A DNA stretch of 64,000 bases from a bacterium (GTDB lineage Bacteria > Electryoneota > Electryoneia > Electryoneales > Electryoneaceae), in NCBI GenBank assembly GCA_963675295.2, contig CAXXKJ010000002.1:4288001-4352000 (forward strand), in the 5' to 3' direction. Positions 23,843 to 28,260 of this stretch are shown one piece after another; positions within the stretch are counted from its first letter, which is position 1, and the number at the start of each line of letters is the position of its first letter. The position numbers were made by a program, and so were the translations under genes. Below the pieces are notes generated by a model that was not told the origin of the DNA, made no database searches, and was given only the letters and a program-made list of their open reading frames with translations.

Positions 23843-24242
23843 CCCGACTGCCCGTGCAATGGTCCGACGACGATTCTTCGCTACGCAGTAAATACAATAA
23901 CAATGGGTTAGCACTGCAGTCTCCGTAAAATCAGTGATGTGACTTCGATCAACTCGCGGGATGGCAGCACACGCTAGGTTGTTTGCAATGCGGGGAAAAT
24001 CCGCAGTTGATCAACGGGCACATGGGCGGCAAGACCACGAAAGTAGACATTCATCAACGTTCTGATTGGCCGATCCGTCTGCCTGTGCAGTGGTGTAAAC
24101 TCGGGACATAAGAGAGAATGCGTGGAATTTGCGGACTCTGAACTGCAAATTCTCAGTGTACAGTAAAAGAACGTAACTCCTCTCTGTAGCTCGAGTTATA
24201 CTGGAATCACGTAGAGTAGGAAAATTGTTCCGGAGCACGGTG

Positions 24243-26246
24243 ATGGGAGCGGACAAACAGAAAAACTCCCCGGATACTTCCCGGCCATCAACCCCGAGAC
24301 TGACGGATCTCCCGTTACAGGGTGCGGGCTTCGGGCCGGAACTCTCCTCTCGAATCGTCCTCCAGCTGATCGAACAACACGCCCACGATTTCATTGCGTT
24401 TCACGACTCCGATGGCCGCTTTCTCTACGCATCCCCCGCCAGTTTCAAGCAATTGGGATACAAACCTGAGGAACTGATCGGACAGTCTGTGTTCGACATG
24501 TTCCACCCTGAAGATTCACATCTGCTTGAGCAGCAGCAGGAACGTATCCGCCAGGGTGATAGCGAGCCCGTGATCCATCGACTGCAGCAGAAGAACGGTG
24601 ACTATCACTGGTTTGAAACCAGTACCACGCAGATTTCTGGTGATGAATTCCCGTGTACGTGCGTACTCATTGTGTCACGTGAGGTAGATCAGCGTGAGAA
24701 ACTCGCCCGCGCGCTGGAAAAATCTGAGGGCGCATTCCGGGACGCCTTCGCGGCGGCCTCGCACGGCATGGCGATCACCGATATAGGCGGGCGGTTCGTG
24801 CAGGTGAATCAACGCTTGTGCGACATGCTCGGGTATTCGGAAGCCGAATTGCTGCAGATGGACTTCAAGACCATCACCTATGAAGCAGACTTGGAATTTG
24901 ATCTCGAGCGTTTGCGGAAATTGACCTCGGGCGATGTCAAATACTATTCGGCTGAGAAGCGCTATCTCCGCAAGGATGGGTCCCCGCTGCACGTGCTGCT
25001 CAGCGTATCGATGGTCTACGATGAGAACGGCGAACCGAAGCACTACGTTGGCCAGCTGATCGACCTCACCGACCGCAAGCGCTCCGAGCAGGCGATGGTC
25101 GAACAGGGGCGTCTCAAGGCAACCTCGGTGCTCGCCGCCGGTTTCTCGCATGATATCAACAACCTGATGAGCATCATCCTTGGCAACGTTGGCATGTTGC
25201 AGCGTGACGAGGCTGCCGGCACCGACCTCAGCGACCGCTTGTGGACCATCGAACAGTCGGCGAAACGTGTTGCGAAAATCGCGGACGAGTTGATCGCGTT
25301 CGCCCGCATGGGCAACTACAACCCGCGTCCTTTGCAGATAAATTCGCTGCTCGAGGAAACGCTGGTTACCTATCAACGTTCAAAGGATCACCACGCGCAG
25401 CTGAACCAGGTGTTGCGGGCCGCGCCGGACATTGTTATCGCGGACGGATCGCAGATCCAGCAGCTGGTCATCCATTTGATCGAAAACGCCATCGAGGCGA
25501 CAGTTGAGACAAACGGTGATGTGTTCATCAGCACCTCGAACGAGGTCCGGCAGCAACCGTTAAACAATGGATCAAACGGATTCCATTACCAGTCGTATGT
25601 CTCGTTAACCGTGCGCGATGATGGTCATGGGATGGATGCCGGAACGCTGGACCACATCTATGAACCGTTTTTCTCCACCCGTGGGCCGGGTCGCGGCATG
25701 GGCCTGTCCGCCGTGTATGGAATCGTCGAGCAGTATAATGGCATCATCGAAGTTGAGAGTGAACCCGGCGAGGGAACCATCTTCCGTATCCTGCTTCCCG
25801 CCGAGCATATCGAACAGGAGCCCGTACCGGAAGAAGAACTCGACACCCGTGACGCGTCCGGCACGATTCTCGTCGTTGACGATGAAGCGGGCATCCGTGA
25901 GATGTTGACCTCATTGTTTGAACGTGTTGGCTACACCGCTCTCGGTGCGGAAAATGGCAAGGTTGCACTTGATCTGATCGCCAAACGAGACGGCCAGGTC
26001 GATCTCGTGCTACTGGACCTGTTGATGCCCGAGATGGATGGCGCGACCACCTTCGCGCATCTGCACCGGGATTATCCCGACCTGCCGGTCCTGTTGATCA
26101 GCGGATATGATCACGATGAACGCGTCGCGTCCCTGATGAATGATGGCGCGCTTGCGTTTATCCAGAAACCGTTCGAACTCGAGCTGGTGTTGCGTGAAGT
26201 TCGCCGTGCGCTTGAGCTTTCCCGCCAGGAATCCCCGTCATTGTAA
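24243..26246 (+). CDS. Cytoplasmic hybrid histidine kinase (PAS-PAS-HisKA-HATPase-REC)
   Basis: HDINN H-box, ENAIEA N-box, DDGHG, GRGMGL, receiver VDDE...DLLMP...KP. Confidence 0.93.
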   Translation: MGADKQKNSPDTSRPSTPRLTDLPLQGAGFGPELSSRIVLQLIEQHAHDFIAFHDSDGRFLYASPASFKQLGYKPEELIGQSVFDMFHPEDSHLLEQQQERIRQGDSEPVIHRLQQKNGDYHWFETSTTQISGDEFPCTCVLIVSREVDQREKLARALEKSEGAFRDAFAAASHGMAITDIGGRFVQVNQRLCDMLGYSEAELLQMDFKTITYEADLEFDLERLRKLTSGDVKYYSAEKRYLRKDGSPLHVLLSVSMVYDENGEPKHYVGQLIDLTDRKRSEQAMVEQGRLKATSVLAAGFSHDINNLMSIILGNVGMLQRDEAAGTDLSDRLWTIEQSAKRVAKIADELIAFARMGNYNPRPLQINSLLEETLVTYQRSKDHHAQLNQVLRAAPDIVIADGSQIQQLVIHLIENAIEATVETNGDVFISTSNEVRQQPLNNGSNGFHYQSYVSLTVRDDGHGMDAGTLDHIYEPFFSTRGPGRGMGLSAVYGIVEQYNGIIEVESEPGEGTIFRILLPAEHIEQEPVPEEELDTRDASGTILVVDDEAGIREMLTSLFERVGYTALGAENGKVALDLIAKRDGQVDLVLLDLLMPEMDGATTFAHLHRDYPDLPVLLISGYDHDERVASLMNDGALAFIQKPFELELVLREVRRALELSRQESPSL

Positions 26247-26450: not shown

Positions 26451-28184
26451 ATGAGAAGATGGATTGCGGTGGCGGCAGTGCTGTTGCTGGCGTTCGCCGT
26501 CCACGCGGAAGTGTATACGTTGAACGCGGATGGGACTGGCGATTACGCCAACATCCAGTCTGCGATCAACGCTAGCGTGAGCGGTGACGTCATTCAGTTA
26601 GAAGATGGAGTCTATACCGGCTCGGGCAATCGCAACATCGACTTTGCCGGTAAAACCATCACCTTGTGCGGCGTGAGTGGAAACGCCGAAGACTGCATCA
26701 TTGACATTCAGGGCGTGCACGGGAACTACGTTTCCGAGCGTGGCCTGATGATCGACTCCGGGGAAGGCCCGGAAACGACGATTCGTGACTTGTCGATCAT
26801 CAACGGAGATGGGGACGGGTCTTGACCGGCTTGTGATGGCGGGGCGGCGCTCTGCTCAAACACATCTCCTCAGTTCATCAACGTTCGTTTCATCAATAAC
26901 TACGCGTCCGGCGGCGGTGCGGTCTATGTGTATGGATCGAACGCTCACCCGACGTTTACCAACTGCGAGTTTTTCGACAATTACGCCAACAATGGCGGCG
27001 CGGTTGAAGTGTATTACGGCAACGCGACATTCGAACATTGCGCGTTTGTCGGCAACTACCTGACCAGCGGTTCTGGTGCGGCGATCTACTCGTACTACGG
27101 TTACGAGCTCAACCTGATGTGCTGCACTTTCGCGATGAACTCCACGTCGGCCGATCCCACGGTCTACTTCTACCAGACCGACGCGGTTATCTCGACCTCG
27201 ATCTTCGCGCAGAACACCTGCACCGCTCCGGTTACGGTCAGCGGCGGCACGCTGGATGTCAGCTACACCGACATCTGCGACAATTCCGGCGGCGACTGGG
27301 TCGGTGCGTTAAGTGCATTTGAAGGCATCAACGGCAACATCTGCGAAGATCCGCTGTTTGAGGATGCCAATAGCGGCAACATGCAGCTGACCGGACCCTC
27401 CCCGTGCATCGACACCGGCGATCCGCAAATGCCGTACGACCCGGACAACACCATCGCGGACATGGGCGCGTACTACTTCGACCATGACCCGCTGCCGGGA
27501 AATATCTGGCTGAGTTCGCAGTACGACCCGTGGTACCTGTTCTCCAACGGTGGCACGGTCACCTTCACCGCGCGCATCCGCAACAACCTCGATGTGCCGG
27601 TGACATTCCAGGGGTGGGTGATGATCACGCTGCCGTCGGGACAGCTCTACGGCCCGACGATGCAGGCCAATGTCAGCATGCAGGCAGCCAGCGAAATGAC
27701 CACCAACACGCTGTCGCAGGTGGTTCCGTCGTACGCGCCGATGGGTGTCTACACCCTGACTGCGCACATCGGCCTCTTCCCAACCACCATCCATTCGGAC
27801 GAGATCCAGTTCGTCAAGATGGGCCTCGCGGCGGATGGTACCGAAGCGCCGGTGGCGTGGGAGAAGCTTGCGTACGGTTGGACGGCGGACGCTCCGGCCA
27901 CAACCCCGGATCTTCCGGACCAGTTCGAGCTTGGCACCGCGTATCCGAACCCGTTCAACGCCACGACGACCGTTTCGCTCAAGCTCCCGGTCAGCCAGCA
28001 GGTGACGGTCACCTTGCTCGACATCACCGGGCGTCAGGTGAAGACGGTCCGTGACGGCGTGCTCTCCGCCGGCAATCACCGCATTGAGGTGGACGCGCAT
28101 GGCCTGTCGACAGGTGTCTACCTGCTTCGTGCGCAGACCGATTTGAACGGCAGCCAGGTACAGAAGCTGGTGCTGGTGAAGTAA
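26451..28184 (+). CDS. Secreted beta-helix protein with T9SS-type CTD; in-frame TGA at 26823-26825 (putative selenocysteine 125, U-P-A-C), 577 aa if read through
   Basis: ORFs 26451-26825 and 26928-28184 share a frame; intervening codons read GDGS*PACDGGAALCSNTSPQFINVRFINNYASGGGAVYV; hairpin just downstream of the TGA. Confidence 0.8.
26834..26858 (+). promoter_or_regulatory. Candidate bacterial SECIS hairpin
   Basis: GCGGGGC (26839-45) pairs with GCTCTGC (26849-55), loop GGC after a 20-nt spacer from the TGA; stem extendable via TGA/TCA. Confidence 0.6.
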
Positions 28185-28226: not shown

Positions 28227-28260
28227 AAAAAAGCCGCGTCGGCAGTCGACGCGGCTTTTT
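28227..28260. terminator. Bidirectional intrinsic terminator
   Basis: AAAAAAGCCGCGTCG-gcagt-CGACGCGGCTTTTT between convergent genes. Confidence 0.88.

Follow-up and report, generated by a model that had tools for sequence, protein, structure and literature searches.

Oxidoreductases of the cytoplasm or periplasm, with thioredoxin-like folds, make up most of the bacterial selenoproteins known so far. According to the Haft preprint, exported bacterial selenoproteins that carry signal peptides are already known. The nearest catalogued envelope or exported selenoproteins are the TonB-dependent receptor of the FCYXU type (NF049945) and the GSU2204/MtrB-PioB outer-membrane beta-barrel (NF041027), followed by the substrate-binding proteins SaoB/SaoX and the DsbA-like and DsbG-like proteins (PMC13188914). 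As described there, these proteins carry selenocysteine (Sec) outside the cytoplasm with a Cys partner nearby (CxxU, UxxC, or CU), and they are presumed to act in redox chemistry or metal binding. Here we report a gene at positions 26451-28184 (plus strand) of a 64,000-nucleotide (nt) stretch of contig CAXXKJ010000002.1 from a bacterium of the Electryoneaceae, hereafter the window. The gene very probably encodes an exported selenoprotein that resembles the catalogued ones in these respects but differs in fold and export route, since none of them, as described in that source, is a parallel beta-helix or a cargo of the type IX secretion system (T9SS). Among the 119 prokaryotic selenoprotein families and subfamilies in Table 1 of PMC13188914 (2026), no beta-helix or T9SS entry was found, in agreement with a preliminary description of this DNA, which had not recognised the architecture among known Sec families.

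Sequence analysis showed that 26451-28184 is a single frame of 577 sense codons followed by TAA, and that the TGA at 26823-26825 is its only interruption. Open reading frame (ORF) calling with translation table 11 cut this frame in two, 26451-26825 (124 amino acids, aa) and 26928-28184 (418 aa, GTG start). The features concerned are:

26451..28184, plus strand: read-through coding sequence of 577 codons including Sec125, with the TAA stop codon at 28182-28184.
26823..26825, plus strand: predicted selenocysteine codon 125, an in-frame TGA, with TGA in the same alignment column in orthologs and Cys in paralogs and homologs.
26823..26834, plus strand: U-P-A-C motif (UxxC), a loop insertion particular to the subfamily by alignment with the Cys forms.
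26928..28184, plus strand: 418-aa ORF with a GTG start, called by standard annotation instead of the full gene.

The sequence flanking the stop reads GDGS-[TGA]-PAC-DGGAALC, with the TGA as the first position of UxxC. Under the public annotation the 124-aa N-terminal part would be a separate small ORF, and the protein P0002 of a near relative (418 aa, 91% identical), named 'T9SS type A sorting domain-containing protein' by NCBI, is only the fragment downstream of the TGA. The preliminary description had read the two ORFs as one frame broken by a single TGA that opens a CxxC-like motif, with the signal peptide and the sorting domain together only in the read-through product, and had noted a hairpin with a G-first loop after a 20-nt spacer. 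The 577-codon frame, the motif, the two ends of the protein (the N-terminus by inspection, Por_Secre_tail at residues 498-574) and the hairpin (at 26838-26856) were all found as it had said.

To follow up its proposal to look for selA, selB, selC, and selD, we searched the window's genome (2 contigs, 4.81 Mb, 58% G+C) and found the complete set. A profile search identified SelA (E 1e-131); SelD (E 1e-110) carried its own in-frame TGA at the canonical RCAG[U]ASKL site; a SelB-type factor was found as a 696-aa frame with a wing-3 domain (E 4e-14); and one of the 50 tRNAs of the genome was a tRNA-Sec with the anticodon UCA, with no second UCA-anticodon tRNA among them. Since selA, selB, selD, and tRNA-Sec are all encoded, the organism is able to insert selenocysteine. 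SelA was also present in all five genomes that hold the other genomic TGA forms of this gene (L008-L012).

Downstream of the TGA, we found a candidate selenocysteine insertion sequence (SECIS):

26838..26856, plus strand: SECIS-like hairpin ggcggggc-GGC-gctctgct, 8-bp stem with G-U as the outermost pair, G-first triloop at 26846-26848, free energy (dG) of -10.1 kcal/mol.

The published bacterial SECIS (bSECIS) model specifies a loop of 3-9 nt, an upper stem of 4-16 bp, G in the first two loop positions, a distance of 16-37 nt from the UGA, and a minimum free energy (MFE) of <= -7.5 kcal/mol (PMC13188914). The window hairpin, whose TGA-to-loop spacing is exactly 20 nt, satisfies these constraints (8 bp, GGC loop, 20 nt, -10.1 kcal/mol), which bears out the earlier description of it as SECIS-like. 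The same was true of all 6 distinct TGA forms of the gene (7-8 bp stems; 3-nt loops GGC, GGU, GAU, or GUU; spacing 20-21 nt; dG -9.0 to -12.7 kcal/mol), whereas none of the 3 Cys forms tested complied, their best hairpins under the bSECIS constraints reaching only -2.1 to -4.6 kcal/mol. In L012 the hairpin is retained with a shift of one base (loop GUU, spacing 21 nt), despite a different peptide (GGGVLVV vs GGAALC). The SECIS of selD in the same genome (C2:1038864) has a GGU loop at nt 24-26 from the U of the UGA, the same position as in the window hairpin; the two are alike in loop position, loop sequence (GGU vs GGC), GC-GGY-GC apex, and stem length of 8-9 bp, and differ in the lower stem and in a second helix that extends the selD element (MFE -25.5 kcal/mol for 60 nt). 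Across the genome, a comparable hairpin was found at 87 of 14,710 TGAs with open frames on both sides (0.6%), and among these 87 are sites in genes recognisable as those of selenoproteins, namely SelD, a peroxiredoxin, and a thioredoxin-like protein. Leu/Phe-Cys at positions +9/+10 is common in the Sec forms, and its codons (CUC/UUC UGC) make up the 3' arm of the stem, suggesting that these residues may be kept partly for the SECIS stem as a dual coding constraint; an overlap of the stem with the Gly-Gly...Leu-Cys codons would be a clean case of dual coding.

To find out which residue homologs carry at codon 125, a point that the preliminary description had marked for checking, we searched the helix domain against 61 genomes of the same phylum and re-aligned the matches. 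Six genomes from three genera and two families (L007-L012, L007 being the window gene) had TGA at one and the same alignment column. Protein identity to the window gene was 94, 52, and 50% within the genus, 36% in another genus of the same family, and 41% in the different family. A metagenome pattern scan returned at least 119 stretches, 118 of them unrelated chance matches and one a true ortholog, contig L154, which is the seventh TGA copy. When read through, all six genome copies had a signal-peptide-like start and a T9SS tail. Among the matches listed in the 61-genome search, the interrupting stop was TGA wherever one occurred (21 rows), and neither TAA nor TAG broke any match. Nine paralogs and homologs, namely the own-genome paralog, its counterpart in a sister genome, an ortholog in genome G007, and six database proteins, had Cys at the TGA column, and eight of the nine had Cys-Pro-x-Cys:

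C2:298688-299740, own-genome paralog: CPEC (DGSCPECEGGA).
L042/P0235: CPQC.
L013: CPSC.
P0003, database protein: CPEC.
P0004, database protein: CPDC.
P0238, database protein: CPNC.
P0257, database protein: CPGC.
P0261, database protein: CPDC.
P0009, database protein: CGEI, the one without CPxC.

No Trp or Arg was seen at this column among the aligned homologs; it contained either TGA (six genomes and one metagenome contig) or Cys (nine homologs), with a single exception taken up below. More distant homologs lack the loop altogether, which indicates that the U/C-P-x-C loop is an insertion specific to the subfamily. The loop-bearing subfamily accounts for only 4 of the best 150 representatives in a very large superfamily (35,597 at E <= 0.001). 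The Cys forms share with the Sec form the signal-peptide-like start, the beta-helix, the T9SS tail, and the same loop insertion (CPxC), with 37-43% identity over the helix domain in those that were aligned pairwise; they differ in having TGC for TGA, in the lack of a bSECIS-compliant hairpin in those tested, and mostly in the lack of Leu/Phe-Cys at +9/+10. In a maximum-likelihood tree, a genus-level Sec clade (support 99/96) was sister to a Cys clade (98/96), indicating that Sec and Cys paralogs coexist in the same genomes. The tree left L011 and L012 unplaced, and it resolves neither the deeper Sec forms nor a single versus several origins of Sec.

We observe the recoding signals and the pairing of Sec with Cys and, as described below, purifying selection on both sides of the TGA, the fold, and genes of the export machinery; from them we infer that UGA125 is very probably decoded as selenocysteine. 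The alternative that survives best is real termination, in which the UGA would mostly stop translation to give a secreted 124-residue fragment and a separate 418-aa ORF started at the GTG at 26928, or would be read through by near-cognate decoding as Trp, Cys, or Arg. The 34 codons that separate the TGA from the annotated GTG bear on it directly. In 4 of 5 comparisons they were conserved above the level of the whole protein (100 vs 94%, 76 vs 52%, 71 vs 50%, and 47 vs 41% identity), L012 being the exception (29 vs 36%), so this stretch is conserved as protein although termination would leave it outside both products, and the orthologs do not need the GTG. T9SS sorting-domain cargo requires prior Sec-dependent export, and the 418-aa product would have the T9SS domain without a signal peptide. 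Because bacteria generally insert Sec with low efficiency, a truncated product probably accompanies the full-length one, which speaks for the two-product reading, as do the existence of the GTG start and the NCBI annotation of the 418-aa ORF in a relative. Both forms of this alternative have against them the bSECIS result in the TGA and Cys forms, the match to the selD SECIS geometry, and the Sec/Cys pattern of the column, which is the classic signature of a selenoprotein. Taken as a whole, this alternative is in our view improbable.

A second alternative is that the gene is a pseudogene, or that one base was miscalled, so that an ordinary Cys beta-helix gene is broken and nothing is made downstream. 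Standard annotation shows two ORFs, the change from TGC to TGA takes one base, and the loss would be tolerable given the Cys paralog in the same genome. Against this, we compared the window gene (L007) with its closest ortholog (L008, 94% identical) and found ratios of nonsynonymous to synonymous substitution rates (dN/dS) of 0.039 before the TGA, 0.127 in the part of the helix after it, and 0.109 for the rest of the gene (dS 0.27-0.38), indicating that the sequence downstream of the TGA is, on this measure, under purifying selection (dN/dS 0.11-0.13). Six genomes, with identities as low as 36%, and one metagenome contig retain the TGA; in 4 of 5 comparisons the stretch that a true stop would leave non-coding is better conserved than the protein overall; the frame contains no frameshifts and no further stops; and the interrupting stops among the matches listed are all TGA. 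The preliminary description had also named the base call of the TGA as a point to check. Contigs from four public runs (X1-X4), to which the comparison applied while the small-share runs X5-X10 were left out, matched the gene with zero differences, and the X4 contig (26751-27029, depth 6) came from a different sample within the same study, so that two samples agree. By the sequence comparisons, conservation effectively refutes the pseudogene, which we rate as very improbable. Just as improbable is a lineage-wide reassignment of TGA to Gly or Trp (NCBI tables 25 or 4), to which the TGAs of distant homologs described below would point, as they lie in Gly-rich turns, opposite Gly, Ser, or Ala residues in the query, and have no Cys counterparts in the sample, but which is excluded as a global change because TGA is the commonest ordinary stop of the genome (it terminates 986 of 2,102 open frames >=400 codons) and no tRNA other than tRNA-Sec reads UGA, while the genome encodes the full selABCD set, the alternative residue at the codon-125 column is Cys in nine homologs, and the TGAs come with a position-specific hairpin that global reassignment would not need.

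Several results weigh against the decoding of UGA125 as Sec. The hairpin is thermodynamically unexceptional for such a GC-rich sequence (z 0.17); of 200 shuffled sequences, 112 folded at least equally well. Covariation was weak in the 6 sequences (5 distinct) that were compared: only 1 of 7 pairs showed a two-sided change, and the observed score was reached by 59 of 500 shuffles. Paired cells made up 91.4% of the hairpin alignment vs 40-71% in slid controls, but the conserved Gly-Gly codons fix part of the stem, so that structural and coding constraints are confounded. In simple folding the Cys forms also formed some hairpin downstream, in another register, so that MFE by itself does not separate the two forms. 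Over the window, no match to an Rfam family attained the gathering threshold. The co-occurrence of SelA is uninformative, as it was found in 10 of 10 relatives checked, including G007, which has the Cys form only. The read support is only partly independent, since the source sample may be the one behind X1-X3, and X4 belongs to the same study. In homolog P0010, the TGA column is occupied by Ser. In L012 (also L048; genome G012), where the TGA is at 2176-2178 of the minus strand, the site is DGC-[TGA]-GQG, with Cys directly before the predicted Sec and none at +3, and the UxxC motif, as read from this predicted C-U-G-Q-G site, is not universal in the family. Finally, a function for the loop is suggested by analogy of the UxxC and CPxC motifs only.

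To examine the architecture of the read-through product, we combined Pfam and NCBIfam searches with structure prediction. The features of the protein are:

26451..26507, plus strand: signal-peptide-like N-terminus, residues 1-19 (MRRWIAVAAVLLLAFAVHA), by inspection; modelled helix at residues 2-15; found in 6 of 6 orthologs.
26508..27485, plus strand: right-handed parallel beta-helix, residues ~20-345, by AlphaFold2 and Foldseek; homologs carry PF13229.
27496..27785, plus strand: middle beta-sandwich (Ig/FnIII-like), residues ~350-445, low confidence (model m726980b31657, predicted local distance difference test score (pLDDT) ~40-55).
27942..28172, plus strand: T9SS type A C-terminal sorting domain, residues 498-574, with PF18962 and TIGR04183 above their cut-offs.

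The N-terminus MRRWIAVAAVLLLAFAVHA/E has the n-h-c pattern with VHA/E and, by inspection only, looks like a Sec-type signal peptide. The beta-helix domain is pectin-lyase-like and has a conserved C-terminal cap, SPCIDxGDP...D.GAYY. Its AlphaFold2 model (m200bdb62967a, from a 15-sequence alignment) had a pLDDT of 93 and a predicted TM-score (pTM) of 0.90, and Foldseek matched it first to the PL6 alginate lyase 7dmk and Rhombotarget A 9cdu/9cdv (query-normalised TM-score (TMq) 0.57-0.58, probability 1.00) and next to pectin methylesterases (CE8), pectate lyase Pel9A (PL9), and chondroitinase B. The earlier claim of a non-thioredoxin fold is thus supported by the model, a right-handed parallel beta-helix of pectin-lyase type. 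PF13229 gave no match on the protein itself in the Pfam scan, but precomputed annotations assign it to many homologs; the sorting domain is the only part recognised by Pfam and NCBIfam, as Por_Secre_tail PF18962 (E 6.1e-11, 42.9 bits vs a cut-off of 27) and TIGR04183 (42.7 bits vs 23). Confidence at the Sec loop, which is placed between early helix rungs, was <50 in the full-length model, and the block mean was ~83 in the domain model. The middle domain gave a weak RbmA-like FnIII match (E 0.014, below the cut-off), RbmA was also the top Foldseek match of the full model, and the domain is absent from the shorter orthologs L010-L012. A fold search with the full-length model was set aside, because low-confidence C-terminal Ig-like domains dominated it (RbmA, transglutaminase), and the domain-only model was used. 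The genome encodes PorU (NF033707, 708.7 bits vs a cut-off of 420) and SprA (TIGR04189, 830 bits vs 200), indicating that the T9SS is present.

From these data we propose the following course of expression. SelB with Sec-tRNA(Sec) would bind the hairpin at 26838-26856, inside the coding sequence and 20 nt after the UGA, and UGA codon 125 would be recoded to selenocysteine during translation. The predicted product of 577 residues would comprise a Sec-type signal peptide, a pectin-lyase-type beta-helix, an Ig-like middle domain, and the T9SS type A sorting domain; it would be exported through the Sec translocon to the periplasm and then across the outer membrane by the T9SS, and would probably be anchored on the cell surface or released from it. 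Sec would be situated in a short loop, D-G-x-U-P-x-C-x-G-G, inserted between early rungs in this subfamily only. By analogy with other motifs of this kind, the U-x-x-C pair may be a selenylsulfide redox centre, a suggestion that we make tentatively, and a binding site for a soft metal, metalloid, or chalcogen on the cell surface is a somewhat less likely use of it, about as likely as all other roles together.

Compared with the UxxC selenoproteins of the thioredoxin fold (thioredoxin (Trx), glutaredoxin, DsbA-like, and peroxiredoxin-like proteins), the window protein is alike in having UxxC with Pro after the first position, as in CPxC sites, and in the interchange of Sec and Cys; it differs in being a beta-helix, with the motif in a surface loop between rungs and not at the N-terminus of an alpha-helix, and no Trx-family Pfam or NCBIfam match was found in it. 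The proteins of the pectin-lyase fold (7dmk, 9cdu/9cdv, pectin methylesterases, and chondroitinase B) have an overall beta-helix like that of the window protein, at only 12-18% identity, and we know of no Cys or Sec loop of the U/C-P-x-C kind reported in them. No selenoprotein model of NCBIfam release 20, including those of the envelope and exported selenoproteins named above, matched the protein. In the literature found, including the available parts of PMC13188914, PMC12013277, PMC13326102, and 10.1101/2022.07.06.499078 with the supplements not covered, no beta-helix or T9SS selenoprotein is reported; the family was likewise not found in the available text of the deep-Sep and BSepDB papers, though deep-Sep Table S2 or BSepDB entries might still list it. 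These results indicate that the gene belongs to a new family of SECIS-dependent bacterial selenoproteins, whose novelty lies only in the fold and the T9SS architecture. New selenoprotein families are described regularly, but a Sec-containing beta-helix delivered by the T9SS, with Sec and Cys paralogs side by side and a possible expansion across the lineage, is unusual. The preliminary description had seen novelty in a secreted or surface selenoprotein without a thioredoxin fold; the part that concerns fold and T9SS architecture holds, while export as such is already known. If confirmed, a structurally and topologically different family would be added to the ~119 catalogued, standard annotation and the published selenoprotein surveys, as far as their text was available, would be shown to miss it, and the question of extracellular selenium chemistry in anoxic sediments would arise. 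The Sec and Cys paralogs in one genome would form a natural pair for studying what Sec adds.

In addition to the loop-bearing subfamily, distant beta-helix homologs without this loop have in-frame TGAs elsewhere, in Gly-rich turns (xG[TGA]GxxC(S/G)GIYC) at residues ~140-243, a second class of candidate Sec sites which we call type-B sites; examples are xG[TGA]GSLCSGIYC, SG[TGA]AGACGGI, and GC[TGA]GCHGSGIYC. They were found in ~16 genes (L027-L032, L035-L041, L047, L063, and L076), at least 9 of them in genome G018 and the others in at least seven more genomes or metagenome-assembled genomes, among them G019, G024, G036, G045, and named metagenome-assembled genomes including LCP-89 B3_LCP; L032 has two TGAs, two codons apart. 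All 16 type-B genes examined begin in a signal-peptide-like manner, and a PNPFN-type T9SS tail was seen wherever the fetched DNA reached the end. The type-B TGA is at a fixed spacing from a hairpin whose loop starts 20 nt after the T and which is encoded by the repeat motif itself (gcagtggGATctactgc). For the strict motif [CG][SG]GI[YH]C, a stem of >=6 bp was present in 9 of 9 copies preceded by TGA vs 10 of 53 copies without TGA (Fisher p 5e-6, which is overstated because paralogs are not independent). The codons of the (C/G)(S/G)GIYC repeat alone form the SECIS-like hairpin, and about 1 in 5 ordinary copies already fold in this way, so that a single mutation to TGA ~20 nt upstream could create a working Sec site. 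Aligned counterparts of type-B sites gave 14 TGA vs 0 Cys in a sample biased towards TGA-bearing loci, and as no Cys counterparts were found, the class is read from the SECIS signal and the recurrence of TGA only.

In the LCP-89 B3_LCP assembly, L076 is a 999-aa signal-peptide/beta-helix/T9SS protein with a TGA at codon 212 (SATGT[TGA]GTCGGGGIRC) and the hairpin gtggcggGATccgctgc. The deep-Sep paper lists 4 known and 0 new selenoproteins for this genome, and this count of 0 new stands against the candidate L076 of the wider class in the same assembly. A lineage-wide expansion, in which many T9SS-exported beta-helix proteins of this Fibrobacteres-Chlorobi-Bacteroidetes (FCB)-type phylum carry Sec in turn loops and the repeats are pre-adapted for repeated independent gains of Sec, is one conceivable explanation of the type-B sites, which we put forward with considerable reserve. 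If true, such proteins would be the largest class in those selenoproteomes, pointing to extracellular selenium redox or metal chemistry. As a separate observation, two strong SelA-family matches each were found in G018, G019, G024, G029, and G036 (E 1e-130 to 1e-152) and one each in G000-G003, G007, and G012; the genomes with two include those richest in type-B TGA sites.

Elsewhere in the window's genome, outside the window, candidate TGA-plus-hairpin sites were seen in a peroxiredoxin (FYPGDFTFV[TGA]PTE), in a thioredoxin-like protein (FMGAT[TGA]GIC), and at GHG[TGA]GTC and STGEG[TGA]GGS, the last without an assigned family; the four positions are C2:1670260 (minus strand), C2:1262909 (plus strand), C2:2156565 (minus strand), and C2:3263971 (plus strand). 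The Ig-like middle domain with the T9SS tail (residues ~350-577) recurs in eight other genes of this genome at 32-38% identity, joined to different N-terminal parts (C2:1941525, C2:1274744, C2:4360660, C1:154389, C1:212398, C1:179430, C1:48676, and C1:190506), and ~49 further ORFs match the C-terminal domain part of the PorU model. The T9SS cargo repertoire of the genome looks large and modular.

The genes next to the selenoprotein gene encode a PAS histidine-kinase/receiver hybrid, an acyl-acyl carrier protein thioesterase, and a GNAT acetyltransferase, and no functional link to it is apparent from them. The hybrid sensor is the upstream neighbour (24225-26246, plus strand) and has two PAS domains, HisKA, HATPase_c, and a receiver domain. 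A sigma-70 promoter scan at the gene gave no match, and the terminator scan found no terminator-like site after the TGA at 26823. Behind the TAA it found one:

28228..28260, plus strand: terminator-like hairpin followed by a T run, 15-bp stem with 8 G-C pairs.

With this predicted strong intrinsic terminator at 28228-28260, the gene is, as judged from its sequence, monocistronic. Contig depth rose 7-12-fold at 27901-28016, where many contigs join with loose ends; this rise is due to the conserved start of the sorting domain (PNPFN...), common to many genes and organisms, and is not a feature of the gene.

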